A DNA stretch of 64,000 nucleotides, from positions 96,001 through 160,000 of the forward strand of contig CAYLXA010000003.1 in NCBI GenBank assembly GCA_964387845.1. Direction: 5' to 3'. The position numbers and the translations under genes were made by a program. Under the pieces are notes generated by a model. It did not search any database. It saw nothing but the letters and a program-made list of their open reading frames with translations, and was not told the DNA's origin. The first letter of the stretch is position 1; the number at the start of each line of letters is the position of its first letter. Of this stretch, positions 8,574 through 52,135 are shown in pieces. This stretch comes from an uncultured bacterium (GTDB lineage Bacteria > Omnitrophota > Omnitrophia > Omnitrophales > Abzuiibacteriaceae).

Positions 8574-8938
8574 CAGTGCGACCCCGAAATTTGGTTGATT
8601 GTATATTTCGGAATTTCGACGATAATTTCACCGCCCTTAACGACCGACTGGCATGCAAGACGCGAAGACAGCGTGGCACCGGATGCTTTATCAACCAAAT
8701 CCGCTTCACGGTCTTCCATTTCGGTCAAATTCTCCATGCCTTTTTTGATAATGATGTGGCATGTGGTACAGGCACAATTGCCGCCGCAGGCGTGTTCTAA
8801 ATCGATGCCGTTTGCAAGCGCGATAGACAAAATGGAACCCGGCTCGCCATCGTGGCCTGTTACGGGGGTGTTGGAATCTACCTCGACGGTTTTATTGAGA
8901 GGAAGAAAAGTAACTTTTGCTTTAGCCATTTTGGTCAA
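8573..8938 (-). CDS. fdx: [2Fe-2S] ferredoxin Fdx of the ISC system
   Basis: [11 protein letters not shown] cysteine motif and an EIPKYTIN C-terminus like E. coli Fdx. Located in the isc operon. Confidence 0.8.
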
Positions 8939-10742
8939 TCCGTTTTCCGACGACCGACTTTTTCAATACGTCATTCATCACAATTTCGGCCAAATGTTCG
9001 GTAGTTTTATTTAAAATTTCGGTCGCGTCTTTGATTTTTTTCCGGTCATTGCCGGAAAGCTCTGTTTTTAAGACCTGAAGTGCATCTTCGATCTTTTTCT
9101 TTTCTTCTTTTGAAACTGCACTACCAGCCTGCACGAGTCCCTTTTCCGTCGCGCGGATAATCAAATCTGCTTCATTCTTAGCATCGATTAAAAGATGCGC
9201 GTCGAAATCTTCTTTGGCTTTCGAGTAAGATTCCTGAACGATATTCTGAATTTCCTGTTCTGTCAATCCATAGGTGGGTTTCACCTCGATCGACTGCTCC
9301 TTACCGTTTCGTTGGTCTTTTGCCTTCACCTGCAAAATTCCGTTTTCATCAATTAAAAACGTAACCTCAATGCGCGGCATACCGGCCTGCATCGGCTCAA
9401 TTCCCTTTAATTGAAACCGCGCAAGACTCCGGCAGTCCTTCGCCAGTTCGCGCTCGCCCTGAACAATGTGAATATCGACCGAAGTTTGGCCGTCTACGAA
9501 AGTTGTGAACACATCGTTGGCACGTGCCGGGATCGTTGAATTCCGCTCGATGATCCTTGCTACCGCACCGCCGTAAGTTTCGATTCCAAGACTGAGCGGG
9601 GTAACATCCAGCAGCAGCATGTCTTTCAGCTGCCCCGTTAAAATATGAGCTTGCACGGCAGCGCCCAAAGCCACAACTTCATCGGGATTCAAGTCGCAGT
9701 GCGGCTCTTTTTCGAATATTCCCTTTACGATTTCTCTGACGATCGGCATGCGCGTCGAGCCGCCGACTAAAATCACTTCATCAATGTCGCTTGCGGAAAG
9801 TTCGGCGTCTTTGAGCGCCTGCTTGCACGGCTTGACGGTCCGTTCCACAATCGGCCTGATGATGGTTTCGAATTCTTTGCGTGTGAGAAAATACTCAAAG
9901 CTCATTTCGGAATTTTTGATTTGAATCGTGGCTTTTTCTTTTATCGAAAGCTCTATTTTTGCCTTCTCGGCCGTTTCGACAATAAGTTGTGTTAACTCCG
10001 GGTTGCCGGCAGCTTTGCTTCCGATTTTTTCGATCAGCATTTGCGCAAGCTTCCAATCCACATCGTCACCGCCCAAATGCGTATCGCCTGCGGTGGCAAG
10101 GACTTCGAAAATTCCGTCATGCAGGTTTAAAATCGAAATATCAAACGTGCCACCGCCCAAATCGTAAACCGCGATTTTGCCGCGGTCTTTTTTATGAAGC
10201 CCGTAAGCAAGGCTCGCCGCGGTCGGTTCGTTAATGATCCGCATCACGTGAAACCCGGCAATTTTCCCCGCGTCTTTTGTGGCTTGCCGCTCTGAATCAT
10301 TAAAATAGGCCGGAACCGTAATGACGGCAGATTTAACGGGTGATTTGAAGAAGGTTTCTGCGCGGGTTTTCAAATTTTTAAGCACAAGCGCCGAAATTTC
10401 CGGAGGTGTTAAAAGCTGATCACCCAATTTGATTCGAATAATTTTTTCATCCGAAAGATCGACGGGATACGGAATGTATTCGGATTTCAAATCGACTTCG
10501 CGCGAGCCTTTTCCCATGAGACGTTTAACGCTCGAAATGGTTAAAGCCGGCTTCGAAACACGCTGATGTTTGGCTTCGTTACCAACCAAAATTTCGCCTT
10601 TCGCGCCGATCGAAACAACGGACGGCAGCAGGATGGTTTTCTTTGAATCCGGAATCGCTTTCGGTTTTCCGGATTCATCCACATAAGCTGCAACGCTAAA
10701 TGTTGTTCCTAAATCAATGCCGATGACTGGTTCCATAATCAA
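8922..10742 (-). CDS. hscA: Fe-S cluster assembly chaperone HscA (Hsp70 family)
   Basis: [11 protein letters not shown]-terminus and DLGGGTFD actin-like ATPase motifs of Hsp70. Located between hscB and fdx. Confidence 0.9.
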
Positions 10743-11311
10743 CTTTCAAGCGCGGTTTCAACCGTTTGGCGCGCCGTTTCTAAATATTTTCGCTCGTGAA
10801 TCAATTTTTGAATTTCTAACGCAAGATTTTCATGCTTCGACCCGCCGGAGTCCCATTCGCGGAATATATCCTGAAGTCTTTCTTCAACGTTTTTGATTTT
10901 ACCCTGCACGGTTTTAAGCGACTCGTTCAGTCCTTGCTCAATCGCTTTCAATTCCTCGGCAGAAACGTTGGATTGCTTTGCTTGCTTCAAGTTATCCACA
11001 TGCTCTTGAATTTCAAACATCTCCGCCAAAAGCTCGGGGGGTGTTTTTTGATCCGTATTCTTTTTGGAAAAACCCTCAATATCCATCATATAACCCGCAC
11101 GAAGCCAAGGATCTTTGATGGTTTCGTAGGCTTTGTTAAGGACGGATGACTGTTCAAGCGCGTTTTGCTTTTCCTGCGGCGTTGCCTGCTGATGATAATC
11201 GGGGTGAAGTTTTTTGGACAGTTCGTAGAATTTTTTTTCGAGCGATTTGGTATCGACCGTTAATTTTTTAGGAAAGCCGAAAAAAGTGAAATAATCCAAA
11301 GTTTTATCCAT
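10739..11311 (-). CDS. hscB: Co-chaperone HscB (J-domain)
   Basis: J domain with HPD tripeptide (KLHPDYHQ); isc operon context. Confidence 0.8.
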
Positions 11312-11338
11312 GCGAATATCATAGAAAATTTGGGCAGA

Positions 11339-11686
11339 TTAAACCGAAAAGGACTCGCCGCAGCCGCAGCTTTTGGAGGCGTTTGGATTGACGAATTTAA
11401 ATCCGCGGCCTTCAAGGCCGTCTACGAAATCAAGATGAGTGCCGTTCAAATATAAATAGCTCTTAGGATCGACAAACACTTTGACGCCGTTGAAATCAAA
11501 TTCGTTATCGCCCTGCTGTTTCTTATCGAATGCCATATTGTAGGACAAGCCCGAACAGCCGCCGCCCTTGACGCCGAGTCTTAAGCCTAATTCGGCGTTA
11601 TTTTGCTTTTCGAGCAGCCGTTTTACTTCTGCTTGGGCAGATTCGGTGAGAACAACACTGCCCGATGTTTTTTCTGTTTTATCCAT
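11339..11686 (-). CDS. iscA: Iron-sulfur cluster insertion protein IscA (HesB/A-type carrier)
   Basis: C-terminal CGCGESF motif. Start taken at the internal Met (MDKTEK), which overlaps the iscU stop by 8 nt. Confidence 0.8.
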   Translation of the reverse strand: MDKTEKTSGSVVLTESAQAEVKRLLEKQNNAELGLRLGVKGGGCSGLSYNMAFDKKQQGDNEFDFNGVKVFVDPKSYLYLNGTHLDFVDGLEGRGFKFVNPNASKSCGCGESFSV

Positions 11687-12089
11687 GAGACACCTTACTT
11701 TCCGCCTGCAAATCTGATTTCTTTTTATAGTCTGAAATGGCTGCTTTGATCGCATCTTCGGCCAAAACCGAACAATGGATCTTAATCGGAGGAAGCGACA
11801 ATTCCTTCACGATATCCGTATTCTTAATCTTGAGCGCATCCTCTACGGTTTTGCCCTTGATCCATTCCGTTGCAAGACTTGATGATGCGATCGCGGAACC
11901 GCAGCCGAACGTTTTGAACTTCGCATCTTCTATAATTCCCTTTTCGTTGACGCGGATCTGCAGTTTCATCACGTCACCGCACTCCGGAGCGCCAACCACA
12001 CCAGTGCCGACATCCTTCGACGTTTTTTCGAAACTCCCGACATTTCGCGGGTTATTGTAGTGATCTAAAACTTTGTCTGAATAAGCCAT
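11679..12089 (-). CDS. iscU: Fe-S cluster scaffold IscU
   Basis: MAYSDKVLDHYNNPRNVGSF..., GAPECGDVMKLQI and GCGSAIASSS are the canonical IscU/NifU motifs. Confidence 0.9.
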   Translation of the reverse strand: MAYSDKVLDHYNNPRNVGSFEKTSKDVGTGVVGAPECGDVMKLQIRVNEKGIIEDAKFKTFGCGSAIASSSLATEWIKGKTVEDALKIKNTDIVKELSLPPIKIHCSVLAEDAIKAAISDYKKKSDLQAESKVSHG

Positions 12090-12100
12090 TTTATTCTCCC

Positions 12101-13327
12101 TTAATGCGACCCGGTCCACTGGACCGATTTAATGTCTACGCCTTCTTTAAACATTTCATACAGCGGTGATAATTCGCGAAGCCGCGAAACCACTTTCACC
12201 ACTTTTTCAATCGTATAATCGACTTCTTCCTGAGTATTAAACCGGCCCAAGCCGAAACGAATCGATGTGTGCGCCAAATCTTCGCCGACACCGAGCGCTT
12301 TCAATACATAAGAAGGCTCGAGACTTGCTGATGTGCAAGCAGAGCCCGATGAAACCGCGATTTCTTCGTTGATGCCCATCAAGAGCGATTCGCCTTCCAC
12401 AAATGCGAAACTGATATTCAGATTTCCGGGAAGCCTTTTCTCTAAACTTCCGTTTAAATAAACTTCTTCCAACTTTGCGTTGATTCCGTTCCGCAAACGC
12501 TCACGCAATTCGAGTAATCTCTTCGATTCTTGCGGCATATCCTGAACCGCAATTTCGATCGCTTTTCCGAATCCGACAATTCCGGGAACATTCAAAGTGC
12601 CTGAGCGCATGCCTCGCTCATGGCCACCGCCGTGAATAATGGGCGACAATCTCACGCGCGGGTTCTTCTTTCTGACGTAAAGCGCCGCGATGCCTTTTGG
12701 GCCGTACATTTTATGCGCCGATACCGACAATAAATCAACGCCCATCGCTTGAACATCCACCGGGATTTTCCCGACGGCTTGCACGGCATCACAGTGAAAC
12801 AGAATTCCTTTTTCCTTCGCGATTTTCCCGATTTCTGCGACCGGCTGCACAACGCCGATTTCATTATTAGCATGCATAATCGAAATCAAAATTGTCTTGT
12901 CGGTAATCGCCGCTTTTAATTCATCCAACCGAATCAAACCGTCTTTTCCGACCGGCAAATAAGTAACCTGAATGCCTTGGCTTTCCAAATATTTACAGGT
13001 ATCAAGAACGCATTTATGTTCGATCACGCTCGTAATAATATGATTGCCGCGCTCCTTGTACATATCCGCGACACCCTTGATTGCAAGGTTGTTGGATTCT
13101 GTAGCGCCGCTCGTGAAAATAATTTCTTTCGCATCGATCGCGTTAATTGTTTTTGCGATTTTCTCGCGCGCAGCTTCAACAGCAGCCTCAGCGTGCCAGC
13201 CGAACGGATGATTGCGGCTTGCCGCATTTCCGAATTCATTTTTCAAATATGGGAGCATGGCTTCGAGCACACGCGGATCGACCGGCGTTGTTGCTTGATT
13301 GTCCATATAAATCGGTAATTTCACCAT
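12101..13327 (-). CDS. iscS: Cysteine desulfurase IscS
   Basis: [21 protein letters not shown]-terminus, PLP-lysine region [12 protein letters not shown], and SSGSACTS catalytic-cysteine loop. Confidence 0.9.
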
Positions 13328-13329
13328 GT

Positions 13330-13851
13330 TTACCCCTTCAAAGATTTTTTGGCCGATTTCACTGCGGTTTTGCTGCGGCCGTTATTTTCAACATCCAATA
13401 AATTAAAAGTTGATAAATTCCATTGCTTTTGCAAGTCATCCTCACCTTCGGCGAGCGACGCGAGCGTTACGCTGCTGCAAAAATCATCGATCAATTGCTT
13501 CAGCTTCCGCCAAAACGGCCGGACGCTACAGCTTGAGAAATGCTGGCAAACAATCCGTTCGCGAAGCCTCGGCGAACAAAACACTTCAAATATGTCGCCT
13601 TCTACCGATTCAATAACTTGCTTCAATGTGATTTGTTCGGGTTCTTTTGCAAGCACAAACCCGCCGTAAATTCCCTTAACACTTTTGATAATGCCGCCCT
13701 TGCGGAGCTTCACGAAAATCTGTTCTACATAATCCTTGGGCAGATGTTCGGCATCGGACACTTCCGAAACCGAAATCGGGTTGCCGTTTGCATGATCGCA
13801 AAGGTACTTTAAACTGACTAATGCGTATTCGCTTTTGGTGGTTAGCTTCAT
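13330..13851 (-). CDS. iscR: Rrf2-family transcriptional regulator IscR
   Basis: [17 protein letters not shown] winged-helix N-terminus; three clustered Cys ([17 protein letters not shown]). It is the first gene of the isc operon. Start taken at the internal Met. Confidence 0.75.
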
Positions 13852-13981
13852 AGATTTATCCTTAAACCCGCAAAACCCACTAAAATTGTACAATATATGA
13901 CTGTTTTAATCAAGATTTATTAAAAAAGTCTCAAAATTTATCTTAAGTTGTTTAATTATAATAATTTATAACTATTACGAA

Positions 13982-15566: not shown

Positions 15567-15683
15567 AACTCAAGTATAAATTCGGGAAATTACGGCGATT
15601 GACAAAAAAGCTTTGCTTCATTATATTATCCGCTCGTATATCTTCTTATTGCGAGCGGTTGTCTCCATGAAATGCGTGATTTG

Positions 15684-15800
15684 GAGGCATCTTCGCCCAA
15701 AAGGCGGAGAAATTGAGGGACAGGCCCTATGAAACCGCGGCAACCAATTCGCTCAAAAGCAGGCGAATCCGGTGCCAACTCCTGAGAGCTGATGATTACT
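15684..15800 (+). ncRNA. SAM-I (S-box) riboswitch aptamer
   Basis: GAGGGACAGGCCCTATGAAACCGCGGCAACC ... GGTGCCAACTCCTG matches the S-box core (GAGGGAnnGGCCCnaUGAAnCCnGGCAACC ... GGUGCnAAnUCCUG). The P1 strands CATC/GATG close the aptamer. Confidence 0.8.
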
Positions 15801-15841
15801 AGAAGCCCGGCTCTAAAATAAGGGGAGGAAAAGTTTTGATT

Positions 15842-15880
15842 AAACCTCTTCTTGAATGCTCAAGAAAGAGGTTTTTTTAT
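15842..15880 (+). terminator. Intrinsic terminator (riboswitch expression platform)
   Basis: CCTCTTCTTG-aatgct-CAAGAAAGAGG hairpin followed by TTTTTTTATTTTT, immediately before the ThrC-like start codon. Confidence 0.65.
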
Positions 15881-15898: not shown

Positions 15899-17128
15899 AT
15901 GAGTTTTGTCAGAGGCCTTAAGTGCCGCGAATGCGGAAAAATTTACCCGAAGCAGGCGCTCTATGTTTGCGAATTTTGCTTTGGTTCTTTGGAAGTTGAC
16001 TACGATTACGACGCGATTAAAAAAGCCGTCACACGTGAAAAAATCGAAAAAGGCCCCAGGAGCCTTTGGCGCTACAAAGCGCTTCTTCCCATAGACAACG
16101 AACCGACGGTCGGATTTCATTCGGGATTTACGCCGCTCGTGAAAGCCAACCAACTTGCCAAAACTTTGGGTGTTTCCGAGCTGTATATTAAAGACGATAC
16201 CGTTTGCCATCCGACATTTTCATTCAAAGACCGCGTCGTATCCGTTGCGCTCTCGAAAGCCCGCGAGCTCGGTTTCGATACGGTTTCCTGCGCTTCGACC
16301 GGAAACTTGGCGAACTCGGTTGCGGCCCACGCCGCCGCCGCAGGATTGAAGCGCTACATCTTTATCCCTCACGATTTGGAATACGCCAAAGTGCTCGGCA
16401 GTTTGATTTATCAGCCCAATTTAATTGCCGTGAAAGGCAATTATGACGACGTGAACCGGCTTTGTTCTGAAATCGCAGGCAAATACAAATGGGCTTTTGT
16501 GAACGTCAATATTCGCCCTTACTACGCGGAAGGTTCCAAAACTTTCGGATATGAAATAGCCGAACAGCTCGGCTGGAAAACGCCGAAGCATTTAGTCTGC
16601 CCGGCCGCAAGCGGTTCGCTGCTCACCAAAATCTGGAAAGCGTTTAAAGAATTTCACAAACTGGGATTCATCGAAAAACCGGAAACGAAGCTTTATTGCG
16701 CGCAGCCCGAAGGCTGTTCGCCGATTTCGGCTGCGATTAAAAATAAATCGGATGCGATCAAGCCTGTCAAGCCGAACACGATCGCCAAGTCGCTTGCGAT
16801 CGGAAATCCGGCGGATGGTTATTATGCCAAAGATGCCGTTTTGGAATCAGGCGGCGCTTCGATGATCGCCACAGACGATGAAATCCGGGAAGCGATTAAA
16901 CTGCTGGCGCAAACCGAAGGCATTTTCACGGAAACCGCGGGCGGCGTTACGGTTGCGTGCGCGAAAAAATTGATCGAACAGGGCGTCATTCCAAAAAATG
17001 AATCCATTGTGATTTCAATCACCGGAAACGGGCTCAAAACACAAGGCGCCATCCGGGATTCTGTCGGAGAGCCATCAATGATCGAGCCGAACTTAAAATC
17101 ATTTGAATCGATTCTGAACAAAAAATAA
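15899..17128 (+). CDS. Threonine synthase-family PLP enzyme with N-terminal Zn-ribbon; candidate MetM-type O-phosphohomoserine-dependent homocysteine synthase
   Basis: FSFKDR PLP-lysine motif and fold-type II PLP layout. CxxC...CxxC sits at the N-terminus. It follows an S-box riboswitch and precedes a ThiS/MoaD-like gene. Confidence 0.75.
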   Translation: MSFVRGLKCRECGKIYPKQALYVCEFCFGSLEVDYDYDAIKKAVTREKIEKGPRSLWRYKALLPIDNEPTVGFHSGFTPLVKANQLAKTLGVSELYIKDDTVCHPTFSFKDRVVSVALSKARELGFDTVSCASTGNLANSVAAHAAAAGLKRYIFIPHDLEYAKVLGSLIYQPNLIAVKGNYDDVNRLCSEIAGKYKWAFVNVNIRPYYAEGSKTFGYEIAEQLGWKTPKHLVCPAASGSLLTKIWKAFKEFHKLGFIEKPETKLYCAQPEGCSPISAAIKNKSDAIKPVKPNTIAKSLAIGNPADGYYAKDAVLESGGASMIATDDEIREAIKLLAQTEGIFTETAGGVTVACAKKLIEQGVIPKNESIVISITGNGLKTQGAIRDSVGEPSMIEPNLKSFESILNKK

Positions 17129-17165: not shown

Positions 17166-17447
17166 ATGGCTGTCAAAGTAAGAATCCCGACACCTTTGCA
17201 AAAACTCACCAAAGATCAAGAAGAAGTAGAGTTAAAAGCAGCTTCTATTAAAGAAATGATTAACAGCCTTGAAAAACAATTCCCCGGAATCAAAGACCGG
17301 CTTTGTGATGAATCCGGCAACATCCGCCGCTTCGTCAACATTTTCCTCAACGAAGAAGACATTCGCTTCTTGAATAAAGAAGAAACTGTTTTGAAAGACG
17401 GCGATGAAGTTTCGATTGTCCCCGCAATTGCCGGAGGCGCAAGGTAA
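17166..17447 (+). CDS. MoaD/ThiS-family sulfur-carrier protein; candidate MetO-type
   Basis: 93 aa beta-grasp-like protein ending AIAGG-AR, i.e. a Gly-Gly near the C-terminus. Its stop overlaps the bioB start (TAATG). Confidence 0.6.
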   Translation: MAVKVRIPTPLQKLTKDQEEVELKAASIKEMINSLEKQFPGIKDRLCDESGNIRRFVNIFLNEEDIRFLNKEETVLKDGDEVSIVPAIAGGAR

Positions 17448-18430
17448 TGACGGTCACCACAAGCTTGATCGGTGACTTACGGGACCGCGTGCTGTTGGGC
17501 GGTGAAATTACGCGCGAAGAAGCGTGTTCATTAATTGAAATTCAGGATGAACAGCTTTTAAACGAACTCGTCAACGCCGCTCACGAAATTACGGTTTTCT
17601 TCAATTCCGAGCAGGCTCACCTTTGCTCGCTCATCAACGCAAAAAGCTATCTTTGCAGTGAAGACTGCGGATTTTGTTCCCAATCGACTCATTTTAAAAC
17701 CGAAGCCTCGCGCTACGAATTGCTCTCGGCAGATGAGATCGTCAAATCCGCGAAAAATGTAGAAGCACAAGGGATCGAAAATTTCTGTATCGTGACAAGC
17801 GGCGGTTCTTTAAATGAAAAGGAGTTTGAGCATATCATCGAAGCGGTTAAACGCTTGAAAGCCGAAACCAAACTCAACATTGACGGCTCGCTTGGTTTTC
17901 TGACGCCTGAACGCGTCGAAAAATTGAAAGAAGCCGGTATGCGGCGCTTCAACGATAATTTACAGTCCTCACGCGAATTTTATAACAAGATCGTTTCCAC
18001 ACATTCCTATGATAAACGTCTTGAGACCTTGGATTTCCTGCGCCAGGGTGATATGGATTTGTGTTCGGGCGGTATTTTCGGCATGGGCGAAACACGCGAA
18101 GACCGCGTGAATATGGCATTTGAACTAAAACGTTTTACGCCCGAATGCGTTCCGGTTAATATTTTAAATCCCCGGCCCGGGACACCGCTTGAGAATGCGC
18201 CCAAAATTGACCCGATGGAAGTTGTCAAAGCCATCGCGGTTTACCGCTTCATCCTTCCTAAATCCAATATTAAACTCGCCGGCGGCCGCGAAATTAATTT
18301 GGGTGAATTTCAAAAACTTGCTTTAAAAGCCGGTGCCAATGGCCTTGTCTCGGGCGGTTACCTCACAACAGGCGGAAACTCCTTCGACACCGACAAGGCC
18401 ATGCTCAAAGAAGCCGGTTACGACGTTTAG
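17447..18430 (+). CDS. bioB: Biotin synthase (radical SAM)
   Basis: CSEDCGFCSQ (Cx3Cx2C). FNDNLQSS matches the BioB YNHNLDTS motif, CSGGIFGMGET matches BioB CSGGIVGLGET, and KLAGGRE matches BioB RLSAGRE. Confidence 0.8.
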   Translation: MTVTTSLIGDLRDRVLLGGEITREEACSLIEIQDEQLLNELVNAAHEITVFFNSEQAHLCSLINAKSYLCSEDCGFCSQSTHFKTEASRYELLSADEIVKSAKNVEAQGIENFCIVTSGGSLNEKEFEHIIEAVKRLKAETKLNIDGSLGFLTPERVEKLKEAGMRRFNDNLQSSREFYNKIVSTHSYDKRLETLDFLRQGDMDLCSGGIFGMGETREDRVNMAFELKRFTPECVPVNILNPRPGTPLENAPKIDPMEVVKAIAVYRFILPKSNIKLAGGREINLGEFQKLALKAGANGLVSGGYLTTGGNSFDTDKAMLKEAGYDV

Positions 18431-18441
18431 CTTTCCTTTCG

Positions 18442-19170
18442 ATGGAAGTTTCTCTCGCTGGAAAAACCATTTTAATCACCGGCGGAACAAGCGCGCTGGG
18501 ATCCGAATTCGTTAAACGAGCGCTCAAAGAAAATGCCAAAATTTTCTTCACCTACTACACGAATGAAACCAAAGCCCGCGAACTTTCGGATTTGGGCGCA
18601 ATTGGTTTTAAAATCGACCTGTCAAAAATTGCTGAAATCAAATCTCTGGCTGCACAACTAAAAGCCCATACAAACGCGCTTGATGGCTTAATCAACAATG
18701 CTGCGTCCGTTAAAGACAGGACGGTTCAAAATATGTCGGATGAAGAATGGGATGAAGTGTTAAACACCGATCTAAAAGCAGCTGCTTTTATGGTCAAAGA
18801 AATGCTCCGATTTTTATTTAAAAAGAAACCGAGCAAAATTTTAAATGTGATCAGCCGCGTCGGTGTTCAAGGCGCTTTCGGCCAGGCCAATTACGCGGCG
18901 GCAAAAGGCGGACTGATTTTGCTCACGAAAAGCCTGGCCAAAGAACTCGGGAAAAAGAAAATTCTGATCAATGCTCTCAATCCCGGATTCATGAAATCCA
19001 AAATGACAGACGTGCTGCCTGCTGAGGTTATTGAGCGCAACCGACATGAAAGCGTCTTGGATGAAATCTCGAATCCTGAAGAAGCCGCGGATTTTATGAT
19101 TTATTTAATGTCGGACAAAATGACGCTTGTGAGCGGCCAAATTTTTAACATCGAGTCGAGATTGCGATGA
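18442..19170 (+). CDS. SDR-family oxidoreductase, FabG-like 3-oxoacyl reductase
   Basis: TGGTSALG Rossmann motif and a YAAAKGG (YxxxK) catalytic motif. Confidence 0.75.
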   Translation: MEVSLAGKTILITGGTSALGSEFVKRALKENAKIFFTYYTNETKARELSDLGAIGFKIDLSKIAEIKSLAAQLKAHTNALDGLINNAASVKDRTVQNMSDEEWDEVLNTDLKAAAFMVKEMLRFLFKKKPSKILNVISRVGVQGAFGQANYAAAKGGLILLTKSLAKELGKKKILINALNPGFMKSKMTDVLPAEVIERNRHESVLDEISNPEEAADFMIYLMSDKMTLVSGQIFNIESRLR

Positions 19171-20363
19171 ATCGTGTTGTGGTTACCGGCATCGGCTGCG
19201 TAGCGCCCATCGGAAATAATCAAAAAGAGTTCGCCAAAAACCTGAGCGAAGGAAAATCGGGAGCTGGGCCAATTTCAAAATTTGACACGTCAAACTTCCC
19301 CGTTAAAAAAGCGTTTGAAGTCCGTTCGTTCTCACCTGTGCCCGCTTCTAAAGCGCTCGATCCTTTCATTCAATACGGCCTCACAGCCGCTGAAGAAGCG
19401 ATTCGGGACAGCAAGCTCGATATTCCATCGATGGACCCTTATCGAGTTGGAATCGCGGTTAGTTCCAGCAAAGGCGGCATGACAACGCTCGAAAAATTCC
19501 GTGATCGATTCTTGAAACGGCCAAGCGCGCTTCTCGGAGCCCGGATTTACGCCAATACCGTTCCGAATATTTTGTCGCAGTGGATCGCGAGGCGTTGGGA
19601 ACTCAAAGGCCCCGCAAAACCTGCCGTGGCAGCCTGCGCAACCGGAACTTACGCAATTATTGAGGGCATCCGGATGATCGAGGATGATGAAACGGATGTC
19701 TGCATCGCCGGCGCAAGCGATGCGTCGATCACCAAACTAATGCTTGCCGGATATCACCAAATGGGCGTTCTTTCACCGAACGGTGTTTCTCCGTTTGATA
19801 AAACGCGCGGCGGATTTTTGGTCGGTGAAGGCGCGGGTGTTGTTATTTTAGAAAAGGAAAACCACGCGAAAGCCAGACATGCACAAATTTACGGGCGGAT
19901 TTTGAGCCATACATACGGAAATGAATGCCGGCACTTAATTTCGTTTCCGGTTGAAAGCGACGGCCTTTCATCGACGCTTATGCGGTCTATCAAAAGTGCT
20001 AATATTACGCCTTGTGACATTGATTCGCTTCAACTCCACGGAACCGCAACAGTTTCCGGTGATTTATATGAAACCGCCCAAATTAAAAAAGCATTTGGCA
20101 AGGATGCTTACAAGATTTCGATGAGCGCCATCAAATCCATGATCGGACACACGGCCGGTGCGGCAGGCGCTTTTTCATTTATCGCAAACTTGCTTTCGCT
20201 GCGCGACCAAATCATTCACCCGACGATTAATTTGAATTCGCCGGATGCCGAATGCGATTTAGACTATACGCCTTGTTATTCTAAAAAGAAAAAAATTAAA
20301 GTCGCCGGTTCGATCAGCATGGGTTTCGGCGGCCACATTGGGGCTATTTTGGTGGGAAAATGA
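19167..20363 (+). CDS. Beta-ketoacyl-ACP synthase (KAS I/II family)
   Basis: Active-site Cys in AACATGTYAI; the HGTAT and GHTAGAAG His motifs are typical of FabF/FabB. Confidence 0.8.
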   Translation: MNRVVVTGIGCVAPIGNNQKEFAKNLSEGKSGAGPISKFDTSNFPVKKAFEVRSFSPVPASKALDPFIQYGLTAAEEAIRDSKLDIPSMDPYRVGIAVSSSKGGMTTLEKFRDRFLKRPSALLGARIYANTVPNILSQWIARRWELKGPAKPAVAACATGTYAIIEGIRMIEDDETDVCIAGASDASITKLMLAGYHQMGVLSPNGVSPFDKTRGGFLVGEGAGVVILEKENHAKARHAQIYGRILSHTYGNECRHLISFPVESDGLSSTLMRSIKSANITPCDIDSLQLHGTATVSGDLYETAQIKKAFGKDAYKISMSAIKSMIGHTAGAAGAFSFIANLLSLRDQIIHPTINLNSPDAECDLDYTPCYSKKKKIKVAGSISMGFGGHIGAILVGK

Positions 20364-21508
20364 AAACCGATCAGGAATTTTCCAGTATTTCAGAAGAACT
20401 TCAATTCTTAAAAGATAGTCATCTGTTCCGAAAATTAAGAACCCTGGAAAGCATTGACTCGACTCATGTGTTATTAAATGGGAAAAAGGTTTCTTTGTTT
20501 TGTCATAACGACTACCTGGGCCTAAGCAAACACCCTGATGTTGCAGAAGCCTTCTCACAAGGTGTCCGTGATTTTGGCGCCGGCTCGGGCGCTGCGCGGC
20601 TCATCACCGGCAATACAACCGTATTTGAAAAATTAGAAGAGCGTCTCGCCCAGTTTAAGAAAAAAGAACGCGCACTTCTGTTTTCGACCGGTTATTTGGC
20701 TAATCTCGGCATCATCTCGGCCTTTTGCGAGAAAGAGGATGTTGTGATTGTCGATAAGCTTAATCACGCTTCAATCATTGATGCCTGCAAGCTTTCGGGC
20801 GCAACCATTCGTGTTTATCCGCACAAAGATTTGGATTATTTGGAGAAAATTCTCAAGCAATCTGATCGATTCCGAAGAAAATTAATCGTTACGGATTCTG
20901 TTTTCAGCATGGACGGCGACTTGGCCCCGCTGCCTGAAATTGTAAAGCTTAAGAACCGCTACGGCGCTTATTTAATGATTGATGAAGCGCATGGAACCGG
21001 CGTTTTTGGAAAGTCAGGACGCGGAGCAGCGGAATATTTGAACGTAGAGGATGAAATCGACATTTCGATGGGAACTTTGTCAAAAGCGTTTGGGACGCAC
21101 GGCGGATTTGTGGCGGGGAGTTCTGAGCTCATCGAATTTTTAATCAACCGGAGCCGTAGTTTTATATTCTCAACCGCCCTTCCGCCCGCGGTTTGCGCGG
21201 CAAGCTTGAAATCGTTGGAATTAATCGAACAAAAGCCGGAGCTAAGAGATCGTTTGTGGAAAAATATTAAAAGCACGGTAGACAACCTAAAACTTTCCGG
21301 CACTTCACCGATTATCCCTGTCATGATTGGCGATGAGCAAAAAGCGATGAATTTATCCGAAAAACTACTCGAAAACAGCATTTTGATCCCGGCAGTTCGG
21401 TATCCGACAGTCCCTAAAAAATCCGCGCGTCTTCGCTTAACTGTTTCGGCTGCTCACAGCCAAAGCGACCTGGAAACCCTGATTTCTACACTTAAAAAAC
21501 ACCTTTAA
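20360..21508 (+). CDS. bioF: 8-amino-7-oxononanoate synthase (alpha-oxoamine synthase family)
   Basis: PLP-lysine region TLSKAFGTHGG and DEAHGTG. Biotin-cluster context. Confidence 0.7.
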   Translation: MKTDQEFSSISEELQFLKDSHLFRKLRTLESIDSTHVLLNGKKVSLFCHNDYLGLSKHPDVAEAFSQGVRDFGAGSGAARLITGNTTVFEKLEERLAQFKKKERALLFSTGYLANLGIISAFCEKEDVVIVDKLNHASIIDACKLSGATIRVYPHKDLDYLEKILKQSDRFRRKLIVTDSVFSMDGDLAPLPEIVKLKNRYGAYLMIDEAHGTGVFGKSGRGAAEYLNVEDEIDISMGTLSKAFGTHGGFVAGSSELIEFLINRSRSFIFSTALPPAVCAASLKSLELIEQKPELRDRLWKNIKSTVDNLKLSGTSPIIPVMIGDEQKAMNLSEKLLENSILIPAVRYPTVPKKSARLRLTVSAAHSQSDLETLISTLKKHL

Positions 21509-21606
21509 CCCCTAATTTTCTCGACATTCGTTTTTTGCATCGATATAATGACGTCCTTGCTTCACATAACTCTCAAGAGATTCCACGCAGAAGACGAAAC
21601 TTACTC

Positions 21607-21975
21607 ATGATGACAAAACGATTTTGGATTAGCTTAACTGCATCTATTTTCTTATTCGCAAGCATCCCTGCTTCGGCAAATCCTGTCCTGCAAACCTTAA
21701 GCGGACTTGTGCTTTCGGTCAATTTAAATACCAGCCAGCTTCATGTCAAATTCGAACATCCTGTGACCGGTGAAAGCGAATTGAAAATTTTTGATGTCGA
21801 CAATAGGACCGGATTTAAACATGTGAAGGGTCTTAATCAAATCAAGCCGCAAGATCCGGTGAGTATTGATTACGAAGAAAAAACGCCGGATCAATTAAAA
21901 GCCGTTTACATCGAAGTTGTCCGTCTCAATGATGTTCCTTTTACCAAGGAACAAATTCAAAAAGCAATTCTTTAA
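21607..21975 (+). CDS. Hypothetical secreted protein
   Basis: Signal peptide MMTKRFWISLTASIFLFASIPASA. Confidence 0.4.
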   Translation: MMTKRFWISLTASIFLFASIPASANPVLQTLSGLVLSVNLNTSQLHVKFEHPVTGESELKIFDVDNRTGFKHVKGLNQIKPQDPVSIDYEEKTPDQLKAVYIEVVRLNDVPFTKEQIQKAIL

Positions 21976-21999
21976 TCTTCCGCTGTACTTGAAATATCC

Positions 22000-22863
22000 A
22001 TGAAGTGTTTTCTGGTTTTTTTTCTAGCTTTCCTTCTTCTGAATACACCGCTCGGATTTTCCGAATCAAATCCCGATACCGAAGCCGATGCTTTGATTCA
22101 AGAGGCAAACCGCTTGATGGCTGAGCGGCAATGGGACACTTCGGCTGAAAAATATGAAGAAGCGCTTAAACTGAACCCTGATTTGACCGAAGCGTTGTTT
22201 GGTTTGGGGTTAATTGCCGAAACAGAAAATGATTTCAACGCAGCGCATGATTATTTTCGCTCTGTCATTCAGCGGAATCCAAGGCATGTAGATTCGCTTT
22301 TTCATTTGGGCGCTATCGCTTATTCACGCGAGCAGCCCTCCGAAGCGCGCGATTATTTCCGGCTCGCAGCCGAATCCAGCCCGAATATGATTCCCGCCCA
22401 TTACAATTTGGGCCTTTGTTATACTGAACTTTATGAACTTGAAAAAGCCCGCGAATCTTTTAAGCAGGCTATTATTTTGGACGCTAAAAATCCGTGGCCT
22501 TTTTACCAAATCGGAAGGACTTACGAAATGCAGGGTTTTGCGCGGGAAGCCAGAATGGGATATGAGGAAGCGTTGAAATTAAACCCAAATTTTCCCGAAG
22601 CACGGGAAGGTTTTGAACGGCTCTCCGGCATCAATCCGGCAAGAGGAGAAGATTCAATCGGTGAAATGCGGCAGAAAGCCAATCGGCAGGTTTCATTGAT
22701 CGGCGGGTCTTTCGGAAGCGGGGGTTTTAAACCGGTGACGCCCCTTGATTCATTCCGCGATTTGGCTTACCCGGCTCAATCTACCAACAACAAGGCAATG
22801 CTCATGCAGCTTGGCGCTCAACTTGTCCAAGGATTTGTAAACTCCCGGCGCCAGCAAAGTTAA
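22000..22863 (+). CDS. TPR-repeat protein with signal peptide
   Basis: Several 34-aa TPR-like repeats (A..Y..AL.L.P); N-terminal signal sequence. Confidence 0.6.
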   Translation: MKCFLVFFLAFLLLNTPLGFSESNPDTEADALIQEANRLMAERQWDTSAEKYEEALKLNPDLTEALFGLGLIAETENDFNAAHDYFRSVIQRNPRHVDSLFHLGAIAYSREQPSEARDYFRLAAESSPNMIPAHYNLGLCYTELYELEKARESFKQAIILDAKNPWPFYQIGRTYEMQGFAREARMGYEEALKLNPNFPEAREGFERLSGINPARGEDSIGEMRQKANRQVSLIGGSFGSGGFKPVTPLDSFRDLAYPAQSTNNKAMLMQLGAQLVQGFVNSRRQQS

Positions 22864-22955: not shown

Positions 22956-23771
22956 TTACATGCCCATTATTCTATAACCGGCATCCACATAAATAATTTC
23001 GCCGGTAATACCGCTTGAAAGCGGGCTTAGAAGAAAAAGCGCCGTGTTCCCCACTTCTTCGACCTCGATATTCCGGCCAAGCGCAGCTTTTTGGCGGTGA
23101 ATTTCGAGCATTTTCGTAAATCCCGAAATACCGCGCGCCGCCAGCGTATTGACAGGCCCTGCGGAAACTGCATTCACACGGATATTTTTTTTACCAAGCT
23201 CGGAAGCTAAATAACGAACGCCGGATTCGAGGCTTGCTTTTGCCATTCCCATCACGTTGTAATGCGGAACGGCTTTTTCAGAGCCCAAATACGTGAGTGC
23301 TAAAATACTGCCGCCTTCCTTCTCCATCAAAGGCTCAGCTGCCTTTGCAAGCGCCAAAAGCGAATAGGCGCTTACATCTTGCGCAAGATGAAACCCTTCG
23401 CGGGAAGTGTCAATGGTGCGGCCTTCCAAGTCTTCTTTTTTGGCAAACGCGATGCAATGTACCAAAAAATGCAGCGCGCCGAATTCTTCTCCGATGCGGC
23501 CGAAAACATTCTTAATTTCGTCATCTTTTGTCGCATCACAAGGAAGAACCAGCGATTTTTGAGACAAAGTCGCGGTCAACTCTTCGACGCCTTCTTTCAA
23601 GCGCTCGCCCTGGTACGTAAATGCCAATTGTGCGCCGTGATTGGCAAGCGCTTGCGAAATCGCCCACGCGATGCTGCGTTTATTGGCAACGCCGACAACC
23701 AATCCCTTTTTCCCGGCCAAAAGATTGGAGGTGAACGCCGGTTTTTTGTTTTCGGTTTGTGGTAATGACAT
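22956..23771 (-). CDS. fabI: Enoyl-ACP reductase FabI
   Basis: GKKGLVVGVANKRSIAWAI N-terminus, and the Y-x6-K catalytic region typical of FabI. Confidence 0.85.
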   Translation of the reverse strand: MSLPQTENKKPAFTSNLLAGKKGLVVGVANKRSIAWAISQALANHGAQLAFTYQGERLKEGVEELTATLSQKSLVLPCDATKDDEIKNVFGRIGEEFGALHFLVHCIAFAKKEDLEGRTIDTSREGFHLAQDVSAYSLLALAKAAEPLMEKEGGSILALTYLGSEKAVPHYNVMGMAKASLESGVRYLASELGKKNIRVNAVSAGPVNTLAARGISGFTKMLEIHRQKAALGRNIEVEEVGNTALFLLSPLSSGITGEIIYVDAGYRIMGM

Positions 23772-43067: not shown

Positions 43068-43112
43068 AGTATTCTCCTAAGTTCCAGAGAGAGGTCATTT
43101 TACTCTCCCTGT

Positions 43113-45638: not shown

Positions 45639-45656
45639 GTTTGCTTTGTTCCTTTA

Positions 45657-48203
<2,547 letters not shown>

Positions 48204-48512
48204 TTACAAATCGCTTACACAAAACCATATTTTTTTAATTCTTTCTTCGCCGAACTCGTTTTGGAGACGTTTTAAAATCGCGGGGCCGTAATTCTGGCTT
48301 AATTCGAACGACAGCGCCGAACTCTCCGTATAAACCTTCACGCCGCCTTGATTTAATGAAGGCTTTGTTTTTGCTGCAATTCTTTCTCCGACAATCTTGG
48401 GCCAACACTCGGCCAAACGCGTATTTTCTTTTTTGGGTTCTTCCGTAAACCCGGCAAATATTCTTTTGATCGCCGCCGCGAGCGGCTTTGTTTCTTGTAG
48501 CGCTGTGTTCAT
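48204..48512 (-). CDS. DUF721/DciA-like protein
   Basis: About 100 aa protein directly between dnaN and gyrB, the usual position of DUF721/DciA. Confidence 0.55.
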   Translation of the reverse strand: MNTALQETKPLAAAIKRIFAGFTEEPKKENTRLAECWPKIVGERIAAKTKPSLNQGGVKVYTESSALSFELSQNYGPAILKRLQNEFGEERIKKIWFCVSDL

Positions 48513-49610: not shown

Positions 49611-49779
49611 GTTTTGCTCCTCTTATACTCTTTTAAATATTAAAAACAGAAGAAAAAGTAGTAGGTGTTCAAAATTATGTTGATAACTATCGTATCCTAT
49701 TTAAAATAAACATCTTACAAATACATAAAGTTGTGAACAACTTAGACATAAACCGCCAAACTCTTATGACAAATGTTAA
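49611..49779. promoter_or_regulatory. AT-rich dnaA-dnaN intergenic region with DnaA-box-like sequences (candidate oriC part)
   Basis: TGTTGATAA (reverse complement TTATCAACA, one mismatch to TTATCCACA) and TTGTGAACA. Confidence 0.35.
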
Positions 49780-51141: not shown

Positions 51142-51390
51142 AAATCATTTATTTAAAATAACTTACGAGTATATCAGGAGAGGCATTCACAAGTAACAAA
51201 AGTTATTAACAATTATCAACAATAATTAACAAGTTATAAACAGAATAGAAACAACCGTTATTATCCTCAGAATTCTGAGCAAATCAAGCCAAAAACACCA
51301 AATTTAAAGAGCCGTATTTTAGCCACGAAAAAATGAAAAGTCTATTTTTATTTTGGCCCCATCGGGCGAGTTCTGTTATAATGCGCGGCT
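51142..51390. promoter_or_regulatory. AT-rich region between dnaA and rpmH with DnaA-box-like motifs (candidate oriC / divergent promoters)
   Basis: TTATTAACA, TTATCAACA and TTATCCTCA boxes, plus a TATAAT just before rpmH. Confidence 0.35.
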
Positions 51391-51528
51391 ATGAATCCAA
51401 CATATAATCCATCAAAAAGAAAACGCAAGCGAAAACACGGTTTTTTGAAGCGGTCGAAAACTTCCAAAGGTCGTCAGGTTTTACAGCGCCGTAGACGCAA
51501 GGGCCGGAAGCGTTTAACGACTGTTTAA
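51391..51528 (+). CDS. rpmH: 50S ribosomal protein L34
   Basis: [45 protein letters not shown] (45 aa). Not in the ORF track because it is under 60 aa. Confidence 0.85.
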
Positions 51529-51572
51529 TAAAAGCAGCCAAGCTGTTCATCCTTTCCGCTATTTCAATTTGA

Positions 51573-51923: not shown

Positions 51924-52132
51924 TGAAAACAATATTGTTGATCGTTATAGGCTTTTATCAAAAATGGATTTCGCCTTTACTCGGCAATCATTGCCGGTTT
52001 GCACCGAGCTGTTCAGAGTATGCGAAATCGGCGATCGAGCAAAAAGGGATTTTAAAAGGAACCGGCCTCGCTGTTGTGAGAATTTCAAAATGTCATCCGC
52101 TGCACGAAGGCGGCTATGACCCTGTGGTGTAA
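51923..52132 (+). CDS. yidD: Membrane protein insertion efficiency factor YidD
   Basis: [23 protein letters not shown] signature. Confidence 0.8.
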
Positions 52133-52135
52133 ATA

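Follow-up and report, generated by a model that had tools for sequence, protein, structure and literature searches.

A putative biotin-dedicated ketosynthase and ketoreductase in Omnitrophota bio gene clusters, next to a candidate methionine module

Introduction

In α-proteobacteria, Hu and Cronan are said to have described in 2020 a dedicated ketosynthase, BioZ, that forms 3-oxopimeloyl-ACP and is primed by glutaryl-CoA from lysine catabolism. A fatty acid synthesis (FAS)-like module of the Desulfovibrio bio cluster, DVU2560-DVU2563, was reportedly predicted by Rodionov in 2004 and by Lin and Cronan in 2011. The FabF-like and FabG-like genes of the D. vulgaris cluster are needed for growth without biotin, according to RB-TnSeq (Trotter et al. 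2023, PMC10102598), and this route is so far known from genetics only.

An earlier note on the DNA studied here had proposed a private pimeloyl-ACP route through a dedicated ketosynthase and ketoreductase, and had listed BioC/BioH, BioI/BioW and BioZ as the known routes. The proposal is supported below by the non-housekeeping status of the two genes, by a bio-gene linkage that persists down to 41% ketosynthase identity and by pocket substitutions, but the list omitted the Desulfovibrio module, which is the closest precedent. We analyzed the whole 64-kb stretch of DNA (hereafter the window), which comes from an uncultured Omnitrophota bacterium, together with related loci (L numbers). We consider it fairly probable that a FabF-derived ketosynthase is dedicated to biotin and elongates free ω-carboxy acyl-ACPs as far as pimeloyl-ACP, no methyl-ester disguise being needed, and that the gene pair upstream of bioB constitutes a separate methionine module. 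If so, a private condensing enzyme and reductase would build the seven-carbon biotin precursor in this bacterium.

Results

Architecture of the locus

The following features were identified in the window:

15599..15627, plus strand: sigma-70-like promoter TTGACA-17-TATATT, 5' of the S-box leader (11 of 12 consensus positions; a consensus match only)
15707..15817, plus strand: divergent SAM-I (S-box) aptamer (RF00162, 38 bits, E 1.7e-6, gathering score 44.4)
15842..15879, plus strand: intrinsic-terminator hairpin and U-run, the riboswitch expression platform (14-bp stem, -17.6 kcal/mol, z -2.86)
15899..17128, plus strand: ThrC-like gene, followed by the carrier gene
17166..17447, plus strand: ThiS/CysO-like sulfur-carrier gene (93-aa product)
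17447..18430, plus strand: bioB, biotin synthase (TIGR00433 match above cut-off)
18442..19170, plus strand: FabG-like SDR ketoreductase, KR (best match FabG TIGR01830, below cut-off)
19167..20363, plus strand: KAS II-type ketosynthase, KAS (best match FabF TIGR03150, below cut-off)
20360..21508, plus strand: bioF, 8-amino-7-oxononanoate synthase, the consumer of the pimeloyl thioester (TIGR00858 match above cut-off)
22956..23771, minus strand: FabI enoyl-ACP reductase (best FabI model 349 bits, just under the cut-off of 370)

By NCBIfam profile search, BioB scores 381 bits against TIGR00433 (cut-off 225) and BioF 473 bits against TIGR00858 (cut-off 426). The gene order and coordinates of the earlier note (carrier-bioB-KR-KAS-bioF, plus strand) are correct, and so are its TAATG overlap, in which the carrier stop codon TAA (17445-17447) shares its final A with the bioB start codon ATG (17447-17449), and its GGAGG ribosome-binding site (17433-17437, 9 nt upstream of that ATG), which is made of the Gly-Gly codons at the carrier C-terminus. 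Among the 4-nt overlaps described there from bioB to bioF, those at the KR/KAS (19167-19170) and KAS/bioF (20360-20363) junctions are present, but bioB and KR are separated by an 11-nt spacer (18431-18441) and do not overlap. The reported absence of bioC and bioH was borne out by a six-frame search of the whole 64 kb with E. coli queries, which found no homologue of BioA, BioD, BioC, BioH, AcpP, FabZ, FabD or FabH at E <= 1e-3. The FabI gene adjoins the module only in window-type loci, and its product is probably a trans-acting housekeeping partner outside the conserved module.

The BioB protein has the radical-SAM motif and BATS domain of Type I and Type II biotin synthases and is closest in overall sequence to Type II (8VDW, 273.6 bits; 8VCW, 230.8 bits; E. 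coli 1R30, 172.3 bits). The auxiliary-cluster ligands are S/C/C/C/R in Type I and C/S/C/C/R in Type II enzymes (Lachowicz et al. 2024, PMC10813225). The aligned positions in the window, C43/C97/D128/C188/R260, match neither pattern, although Cys43 is shared with Type II.

KAS and KR compared with FabF and FabG

Both proteins resemble housekeeping FabF and FabG in fold and catalytic residues, and KAS is ~40% identical to the FabF of the Bacillus group. KAS retains the catalytic Cys157-His291-His328 and Lys323, all invariant in its clade; KR retains the counterparts of Asn86, Ser138, Tyr151 and Lys155 in E. coli FabG, and carries Ser-Arg at the C-terminus in place of the FabG Gly-Gly (8 bio-linked SDRs compared with 50 FabGs). 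In contrast to this catalytic likeness, both fall below the equivalog cut-offs, KAS scoring 368 bits against FabF TIGR03150 (cut-off 493.75) and KR 187.7 bits against FabG TIGR01830 (cut-off 297.75). In a neighbor-joining tree with 100 bootstraps, the 23 bio-linked KAS proteins with Lys102 form a separate, long-branch clade, recovered as monophyletic in all 100 replicates, apart from the 83 FabFs included. Two Omnitrophota loci from genomes other than that of the window (L031 and L055) contain a canonical plsX-fabH-fabD-fabG-acpP-fabF cluster, whose FabFs group with generic FabFs, whereas the window genes lie in a bio operon. Because of the scores below cut-off, the separate KAS clade and the canonical fab clusters elsewhere in Omnitrophota, KAS and KR are not housekeeping genes; the possibility raised earlier, that they are simply the core FAS genes, finds no support in these data.

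Conservation of the module

The order bioB-KR-KAS-bioF(-bioA-bioD) is kept in ~85 related loci on independent contigs from Omnitrophota and also TA06, and the arrangement is far beyond chance because it recurs in so many of them. KR comes after bioB in 45 of 48 loci, KAS after KR in 47 of 51, and bioF after KAS in 50 of 59. The linkage of KAS to bio genes holds at 41-44% KAS identity and in rearranged contexts, including L009, L010 (with a BioU-like gene), L096 (with inserted cysD-cysN) and L091 (with a KAS/BioU-like pair). Some lineages (L122, L123 and L091) are missing KR. None of the ~85 loci encodes an ACP, a dehydratase, BioC or BioH, and no homologue of a FabH-type KAS was found in the window or the related loci.

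Two individual loci have additional genes nearby. A SAM methyltransferase gene lies directly 3' of bioF in L009 (best NCBIfam match BioC, 68 bits, cut-off 185), and an alpha/beta hydrolase is encoded near the cluster in L096 (BioH model, 45 bits, cut-off 207).

Acyl pocket of KAS

Residue Ile108 is part of the FabF substrate pocket, and the I108F substitution lowers elongation of long-chain acyl-ACPs (PMC5206705; PMC4606726); PDB entries 4LS5 and 4LS6 differ at precisely this column. Lys102 of KAS aligns with Ile108, which would place it in the acyl pocket. Lysine occupies this position in all 23 bio-linked KAS proteins of the tree and in all 64 from the metagenome loci; of the 83 FabFs, 73 have Ile, 8 have Val and 2 have Met. 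Arg126, Arg142 and Tyr196 are invariant in the core clade and in the 64 metagenome-locus proteins; together with Tyr128 they are specific to the bio-linked clade.

Upstream methionine module

The S-box operon mentioned in the earlier note is supported by the aptamer, the terminator hairpin and the promoter-like site listed above. SAM riboswitches occur at the equivalent position in L001 (38.8 bits) and L003 (70.6 bits). The ThrC-like protein (thrC TIGR00260, 276 bits) has a PALP domain and an N-terminal Cys4 motif, and its nearest solved structures are threonine synthases. MetM (Hasebe et al. 2024, as cited in a 2026 GapMind preprint) is described as often misannotated as ThrC, and we regard this PLP enzyme as a candidate MetM-like homocysteine synthase that would use the thiocarboxylate of the carrier. 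The carrier protein matches the ThiS (PF02597) and MoaD families, and its nearest structures are 4N6E_B and M. tuberculosis CysO (3DWG_C). It ends in AIAGG followed by two extra residues (AR), and most relatives end exactly at GG; it is probably a MetO-like sulfur carrier of the ThiS/MoaD/CysO family. Most likely the pair is a MetM/MetO-type homocysteine module under a SAM riboswitch, separate from the bio genes, which would have become fused to the bio operon in the lineage of the window.

Discussion

Proposed pimeloyl-ACP route and its alternatives

The route described next goes beyond what the sequences show: its substrate, its free-carboxylate chemistry, how many cycles it takes and its reliance on housekeeping partners are all inferred. 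With malonyl-ACP as extender, KAS would elongate malonyl to 3-oxoglutaryl and then glutaryl to 3-oxopimeloyl thioesters. Lys102, Arg126, Arg142 and Tyr196 may shorten the pocket and pair with the distal carboxylate, which would make the BioC/BioH methyl-ester disguise unnecessary. KR, which probably works with KAS in most lineages, would reduce the 3-oxo-ω-carboxyacyl-ACPs; housekeeping FabZ, FabI and AcpP would supply dehydration, enoyl reduction and the carrier. Finally, BioF, predicted to be translationally coupled to KAS, would join pimeloyl-ACP with alanine.

A chance placement of ordinary fatty acid or secondary metabolite genes among the bio genes is hardly credible: the families of KAS and KR are indeed very large, and both genes are called FabF/FabG-like by annotation pipelines, but the reading is already contradicted by a linkage that spans ~85 contigs, deep divergence and several rearrangements, and the separate clade with diagnostic pocket residues and the fab clusters elsewhere in the phylum also speak against it. 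It is rather unlikely that KAS acts as BioZ does, condensing only glutaryl-CoA or -ACP (from lysine or other catabolism) with malonyl-ACP to give 3-oxopimeloyl-ACP, which KR would reduce and FabZ and FabI finish. One dedicated condensation reportedly suffices in α-proteobacteria, a lysine in place of Ile108 would be suited to a C5 dicarboxyl primer, and the lineages without KR fit if housekeeping FabG reduces 3-oxopimeloyl-ACP. However, inspection of the gene tables and homologue scans of the loci read revealed no recognizable gene for making glutaryl-CoA (CaiB-like transferase, lysine catabolism); KAS II enzymes (Cys-His-His) are normally primed from ACP and not from CoA; and the presence of a dedicated KR in 45 of 48 loci points to intermediates, 3-oxoglutaryl-ACP for example, on which FabG performs poorly. 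Less probable still, BioC- and BioH-type enzymes encoded elsewhere could mask the carboxylate, with KAS and KR merely replacing FabF and FabG on methyl esters. The search for such enzymes covered the window and the related loci, and the L009 methyltransferase and the L096 hydrolase point in this direction; both score below their family cut-offs, the other ~85 loci scanned contain no BioC or BioH gene although many have bioB, bioF, bioA and bioD together, and an invariant lysine and two arginines in the pocket region are hard to square with a neutral ester tail. We therefore prefer elongation of free ω-carboxy acyl-ACPs by KAS.

The earlier note had left open whether the coupling of the carrier gene to bioB is functional or reflects read-through from the S-box operon. 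A ThiS/CysO-like thiocarboxylate might provide the sulfur that BioB inserts, or reload its auxiliary cluster, which would explain the translational coupling. In favor of such a role, all lineages of the clade, down to 44% KAS identity, have thiS directly 5' of bioB, except one derived subclade and L009, and this position is ancestral; the sulfur donor of Type II-like BioB is not known (PMC10813225), and the BioB ligand set is unusual. The same supra-operon includes mnmA, another sulfur-requiring gene. We nevertheless give this role little credence. A ThrC-like enzyme accompanies the carrier in every case, and in three lineages so does a SAM riboswitch, a combination that is the MetM/MetO methionine signature; the block tatC-cysC-cysH-sat-metM-thiS is missing in 17 of 36 loci with the BioB ligand pattern unchanged. 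Moreover, the spacing between thiS and bioB varies from the 1-nt overlap in the window to 3 nt in L003, 85 nt in L005 and 148 nt in L096, or an NIL-domain ORF intervenes, and the two residues past GG in the window carrier would need trimming before activation. Because of the MetM/MetO-like pair with its SAM riboswitch, the restriction of the TAATG overlap to the window and its close relatives, and the loss of the whole sulfur block in one subclade that retains the same BioB, the evidence leans clearly toward a neighboring methionine module.

Comparison with known systems

The upstream pair resembles MetM/MetO (Hasebe et al. 2024) and M. tuberculosis CysM/CysO in that the gene for a ThrC-/CysM-type PLP enzyme adjoins one for a ThiS-like carrier with a C-terminal Gly-Gly; the nearest solved carriers are of the CysO type, and a SAM riboswitch lies upstream. 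It differs in its fusion to a biotin operon and in the two residues past GG in the window, and no Mec- or MoeZ-type partner stands out on reading the window ORF list.

As in the E. coli BioC-BioH pathway, FAS-type elongation by two-carbon units on ACP would make the pimeloyl moiety, which would then pass to BioF. E. coli hides the carboxylate in a methyl ester and relies on its housekeeping FabB/F and FabG, whereas no BioC or BioH is encoded within or close to the cluster studied here, and its condensing enzyme appears to be specialized. With BioZ the module shares a dedicated ketosynthase whose gene accompanies bio genes, the bypass of BioC/BioH and, as proposed, the product 3-oxopimeloyl-ACP; BioZ is reportedly a KAS III (FabH-like, Cys-His-Asn) without a dedicated KR, in contrast to the KAS II-type enzyme of the window.

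The Desulfovibrio module DVU2560-DVU2563, compared by gene description, likewise has a FabF-like KAS and a FabG-like reductase within a biotin cluster, with KAS adjoining bioF; both clusters are without bioC and bioH, and the organisms are anaerobes. The Omnitrophota module lacks the dedicated ACP, FabZ-like dehydratases and nitroreductase-like gene of Desulfovibrio. The lack of its own dehydratases and ACP counts against the proposed route, in which housekeeping FabZ and FabI are assumed to accept C5 ω-carboxy intermediates. Some of its lineages dispense even with KR. By analogy, the KAS/KR module would represent the bio-cluster module of Desulfovibrio in minimal form, carried in another phylum, Omnitrophota, and also in TA06.

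Organization of the biotin gene string

Open reading frames of the window form one tightly packed gene string on the + strand, from 15.6 to 21.5 kb, with a ketosynthase (KAS) and a ketoreductase (KR) between bioB and bioF. The string and its upstream elements are listed below; Pfam concurs with NCBIfam on the domain assignments.

Features of the gene string and its upstream elements
15599-15627, promoter-like site upstream of the ThrC-like gene
15707-15817, divergent SAM-I aptamer (RF00162, 38 bits, below the gathering score of 44.4, E 1.7e-6)
within the 15707-15879 element, 3' of the aptamer, 14-bp terminator hairpin with a U-run
15899-17128, + strand, ThrC-like PLP enzyme (NCBIfam/Pfam)
17166-17447, + strand, 93-aa ThiS/MoaD-family protein (NCBIfam/Pfam)
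17447-18430, + strand, bioB (NCBIfam TIGR00433, 381 bits, cut-off 225)
18442-19170, + strand, short-chain dehydrogenase, KR (FabG TIGR01830, 187.7 bits, below the cut-off of 297.75)
19167-20363, + strand, KAS I/II-type ketosynthase (FabF TIGR03150, 368.1 bits, below the cut-off of 493.75)
20360-21508, + strand, bioF (NCBIfam, 473 bits, cut-off 426)

Both BioB and BioF exceed their NCBIfam equivalog thresholds. The earlier note had described bioB, KR, KAS and bioF as running in tight 4-nt overlaps, a description that fits two junctions out of three (KR/KAS and KAS/bioF, 4 nt each), whereas bioB and KR are separated by an 11-nt spacer. At the upstream end its reading of a TAATG junction was correct, the final base of the ThiS stop being also the first of the bioB start, as was that of a GGAGG ribosome-binding site, which lies 9 bases 5' of the bioB start and is made by the Gly-Gly codons of the carrier (GGAGGC; window 17433-17447), so that these serve also as the bioB Shine-Dalgarno sequence. 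The absence of bioC and bioH was confirmed when all 64 kb were searched in six frames with E. coli queries; BioA, BioD, AcpP, FabZ, FabD and FabH, searched for in the same way, had no homolog in the window either.

Several neighboring features were recorded. A 146-aa ORF with a signal-peptide-like N-terminus and no family match, followed by a TPR protein, lies 3' of bioF (21535-22863), and this pair is kept in the window-type loci L001, L003, L098 and L100-L102. Beyond the TPR protein, window-type loci carry a convergent fabI on the other strand (22956-23771 in the window); it was rejected as a module member, as it adjoins only in these loci. An iscR-iscS-iscU-iscA-hscB-hscA-like Fe-S assembly cluster (8922-13893, - strand; named via the Pfam tags of syntenic L001) is divergent from the S-box operon, 2 kb upstream of it, and adds to the local concentration of sulfur genes. 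Further along, at about 43100-57700, look-alikes of gyrA, gyrB, dnaN and dnaA on the - strand and of rnpA, yidC, mnmG, parA and parB on the + strand were judged from N-terminal sequences; the cumulative GC skew has its minimum near 50-54 kb, and a chromosomal replication origin is predicted at about 51.2-51.5 kb.

A separate clade of bio-linked ketosynthases

Neither the KAS nor the KR is a housekeeping gene. Among the matches listed in a generic FabF motif scan of species-representative genomes, 79 were ordinary FabFs and a single one belonged to the clade; the ordinary FabFs served as tree outgroup and were also the source of two Omnitrophota fab clusters. A search of 50%-representative sequences was dominated by giant polyketide synthases and left about 13 usable single-domain KAS relatives. 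The view of the ketosynthase as dedicated is supported by its phylogenetic position relative to FabF and FabB: in a neighbor-joining tree of 23 bio-linked KAS and 83 FabFs from many phyla, with E. coli FabB as outgroup, the bio-linked KAS are monophyletic in 100/100 bootstraps and stand apart from the housekeeping FabFs.

The nearest solved structures to the KAS are FabFs, the best being B. subtilis 4LS5 (281 bits). The closest FabF sequences, from Bacillus-group plasmids, are about 40% identical or less, and tblastn against plasmids gave ordinary FabFs only. The KAS homolog of related locus L009 likewise scores 355 bits against TIGR03150 (cut-off 493.75). The catalytic Cys157, His291, His328 and Lys323 are invariant, and thus the Cys-His-His triad and the active-site Lys are present. 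In all eight bio-linked SDRs, the residues aligned to E. coli FabG Asn86, Ser138, Tyr151 and Lys155 are kept, and Ser-Arg replaces the C-terminal Gly-Gly of FabG.

Ordinary fatty-acid synthesis genes were found in two other Omnitrophota loci, as a full plsX-fabH-fabD-fabG-acpP-fabF set (L031) and as fabG-acpP-fabF (L055), and both FabFs place among the ordinary FabFs in the tree. The phylum therefore has normal fatty-acid machinery besides the KAS/KR pair, as judged from these two genomes rather than from the window's own.

Linkage to biotin genes across relatives

Gene contexts were taken from ten contigs obtained by exact-protein look-up, from the one clade member among the 80 listed loci of species-representative genomes, and from 74 JGI/ENA metagenome loci obtained with a clade-specific 70-residue segment as query. 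Named homologs of the KAS come from Candidatus Omnitrophota, plus a few from candidate division TA06, and named members of the bio-linked clade, marked by Lys102, are from these two only. Within the 74 metagenome loci, the KR follows bioB in 45 of 48 cases, the KAS follows the KR in 47 of 51, and bioF follows the KAS in 50 of 59; bioA and bioD are usually downstream of bioF.

The association of the KAS with bio genes outlasts rearrangement (L009, L010, L091, L092, L096, L122, L123). With a KAS 44% identical to that of the window, L009 has the order bioB-KR-KAS-bioF-methyltransferase...bioA-bioD, while in L010 (41% identical) a BioU-like gene comes after bioB-KR-KAS. The KAS adjoins a BioU-like gene in L091 and L092, which have no KR, and directly follows bioB in L122 (4853-7210) and L123 (4639-6968), also without a KR. 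L096 (6248-8976) has an insertion between KR and KAS that consists of cysD and cysN(-cysC fusion), which encode sulfate adenylyltransferase. As the module survives such rearrangements and some loci lack the KR, the KAS is the constant element, and the sole invariant part of the module, and the KR its frequent companion. The cysD-cysN insertion also occurs in L105, L108, L109, L121, L126 and L162. An apparent loss of bioB in L011 was an artefact of a masked N run, the bioB start being visible 5' of the gap. Many loci have cysC-cysH-sat-metM-thiS-bioB...bioD-mnmA as one co-directional 'sulfur plus biotin' supra-operon.

A scan of the window and about 85 related loci found no gene for an ACP, a FabZ-like dehydratase (with E. 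coli FabZ as query, which very divergent hot-dog proteins might escape), a FabH-type KAS, BioC or BioH. Two candidates were too weak to count, a methyltransferase of L009 as BioC (68 bits, cut-off 185) and a hydrolase of L096 as BioH (45 bits, cut-off 207). The former is the first of two SAM-methyltransferase ORFs 3' of bioF (L009 10370-11689); BioC is its best NCBIfam match, and the protein may be either a BioC that has diverged greatly or an enzyme of another kind.

Acyl-pocket residues of the ketosynthase

FabF Ile108 is a substrate-pocket residue that shifts to let acyl chains in, and the I108F FabF variant elongates long chains poorly (PMC5206705; PMC4606726). The bio-linked KAS have Lys at this position (Lys102 in KAS numbering) in 23 of 23 tree members and in 64 of 64 metagenome sequences, whereas the same column in the 83 FabFs holds only hydrophobic residues (73 Ile, 8 Val, 2 Met). 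The difference between the PDB pair 4LS5 and 4LS6 falls exactly at the Ile108 column. Core clade members also have invariant Arg126 (aligned with the first Phe of the E. coli FabF PFF motif), Arg142 and Tyr196 (aligned with a Phe), and Tyr or Phe at position 128. With Lys at the 108 position together with Arg126, Arg142 and Tyr196, the hydrophobic tunnel of FabF would thus be turned into a short, polar and cationic pocket, which is what might be expected for a carboxylate-ended substrate.

A BioB with an atypical ligand pattern

The window BioB has the CxxxCxxC motif and the PF04055 and PF06968 (BATS) domains, in addition to its TIGR00433 score above cut-off. It is closer to two Type II structures, 8VDW (273.6 bits) and 8VCW (230.8 bits), than to E. 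coli BioB (172.3 bits). The auxiliary-cluster positions are Cys43, Cys97, Asp128, Cys188 and Arg260 (E. coli numbering). This C/C/D/C/R pattern is shared by all 7 aligned KAS-linked BioBs, the loci with the pattern being the window, L001, L003-L005, L009, L010 and L096. In 43 of 44 further BioBs of the clade (L098-L171) the Cys spacing is identical, and DGSLG stands where E. coli has the Cys128-containing CMTLG. Variable residues seen at position 128 in a wide alignment were an offset, ruled out by the Cys spacing from the radical-SAM motif. The published ligand sets are S/C/C/C/R for Type I and C/S/C/C/R for Type II (PMC10813225); by alignment, the predicted window pattern is neither, and a Type I label from the published position-97 motif is probably misleading for this BioB.

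Sulfur carrier, ThrC-like enzyme and SAM riboswitch

The SAM-I aptamer of the window is probably a divergent true member of its family. SAM-I riboswitches also precede the ThrC-like gene in L001 (6515-6615, 38.8 bits, below the gathering score) and L003 (4566-4654, 70.6 bits, above it). Since there is no gap ahead of bioB, SAM may exert part of the control over the window's bio genes.

The nearest solved relatives of the carrier are of the CysO type (4N6E_B; M. tuberculosis CysO, 3DWG_C), and it is invariably paired with the ThrC-like enzyme, a ThrC-homologous PLP enzyme thus adjoining a ThiS-family carrier with a C-terminal Gly-Gly. The MetM/MetO route, described recently, leads from O-phosphohomoserine to homocysteine, MetM being a ThrC homolog that is often misannotated. 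By analogy, the ThrC-like/carrier pair behind the SAM riboswitch matches the MetM/MetO route, and this is its putative activity. The carrier of most relatives has Gly-Gly as its very last residues; two further residues (Ala-Arg) and the TAATG overlap are confined to the window and its nearest relatives, a lineage in which the carrier stop codon has moved two codons downstream. With Ala-Arg after the diglycine, trimming would be needed before carrier activation.

The earlier note had left the carrier-bioB coupling as either functional or read-through. Elsewhere thiS and bioB are 3 nt (L003), 85 nt (L005) or 148 nt (L096) apart, or are separated by a NIL-domain ORF. Among the 36 loci with enough upstream DNA, thiS lies 5' of bioB in 19. 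The 17 loci without it form one derived subclade, nested within the thiS-bearing lineages, in which the block tatC-cysC-PHP-cysH-sat-(cysK)-metM-thiS is wholly absent and bioB directly follows a ROK gene. The loss of thiS in a nested subclade implies that the adjacency is ancestral and long-lived, yet a junction of two separable modules. Direct transfer of sulfur from the carrier to BioB would be the more exciting of the two, since what donates sulfur to anaerobic BioBs is an acknowledged open question (PMC10813225), and it is more speculative that the co-inherited CysO-like carrier also supplies the atypical C43/C97/D128 BioB. We consider such a hand-over very improbable: the BioB ligand pattern is identical with or without the sulfur block. 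With the whole block absent from 17 of 36 loci and the BioB pattern unchanged, the coupling is best explained by fusion of the bio genes with a methionine/sulfur-assimilation operon.

The NIL-domain ORF between thiS and bioB, of about 80 aa, was observed in L011 (~8660-8900), L126, L127, L131, L134, L143 and L165. NIL domains are companions of methionine and sulfur metabolism proteins.

Proposed route to pimeloyl-ACP and its significance

The earlier note had proposed a private pimeloyl-ACP route through a dedicated KAS and KR. The separate clade, the bio linkage and the residue changes, which together with the gene identities were demonstrated in this analysis, argue for such a route at the sequence level. 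In the route that we consider most likely, the KAS would take an omega-carboxy acyl primer and extend it with malonyl-ACP, the primer being glutaryl alone or, over two cycles, first malonyl and then glutaryl. The 3-oxo product would be reduced by the KR, the other steps would come from housekeeping FabZ, FabI and AcpP, and pimeloyl-ACP would be passed to BioF. We infer the substrate, its free carboxylate, the cycle number and the borrowed partners. We put forward tentatively, as a possibility a little short of even, that Omnitrophota and neighboring candidate phyla make pimeloyl-ACP via essentially one specialized FabF-derived KAS, whose pocket Lys and Arg bind the free omega-carboxylate, without a methyl-ester disguise, a dedicated ACP or a dedicated dehydratase. 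Such binding would allow ordinary fatty-acid synthesis enzymes and an ordinary ACP to build a dicarboxylic acid.

Of all parts of biotin synthesis, the making of the pimelate moiety is the least conserved and the least settled. The genes bioF, bioA, bioD and bioB are present in many anaerobes and uncultured phyla that have no recognizable early pathway and so are scored as 'partial' or auxotrophic, as in a recent survey of 176 complete Omnitrophota genomes, where the biotin pathway is labelled 'partial'. The module would fill this early-pathway gap for a whole phylum, and in it Lys at FabF position 108, together with Arg126 and Arg142, is a concrete and testable candidate for what determines specificity. 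If true, the proposal would be the simplest known answer to the pimelate problem; its confirmation would make for better metabolic predictions in candidate phyla and would give engineered strains a compact two-gene part with which to produce biotin or pimelate. How the sulfur-donating cluster is bound and reloaded in anaerobic biotin synthases is a newly opened question, which the BioB variant widens.

Comparison with known pimelate modules

We found no literature description of a KAS/KR bio module in Omnitrophota. The BioC-BioH pathway uses an O-methyltransferase and a pimeloyl-ACP methyl ester esterase, neither of which occurs in the window or related loci. BioZ is a KAS III with a FabH-like fold and a Cys-His-Asn triad, whereas the enzyme described here is KAS II-like, and a FabH homolog is found in neither the window nor the related loci.

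The closest precedent is the bio cluster of D. vulgaris, in which FabF-like (DVU2563), FabG-like (DVU2561), ACP and two FabZ-like genes are all required for biotin-free growth, and for which elongation without a methyl ester, in less hydrophobic active sites, was proposed (PMC10102598). Here too, FabF-like and FabG-like genes stand amid bioB and bioF. However, Desulfovibrio has a dedicated ACP (DVU2562), whereas the window and about 85 related loci have no AcpP homolog, and it has FabZ-like dehydratases (DVU2560, DORF42491), whereas none was found here with the E. coli FabZ query. Likened by gene content, the Omnitrophota module would be a minimal version of the D. vulgaris idea, cut down to a KAS with or without a KR, and, if the proposal is true, the pocket residues would give a residue-level explanation for the still uncharacterized Desulfovibrio-type route. 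The module is a new, minimal version of a known but biochemically uncharacterized kind of pimelate module.
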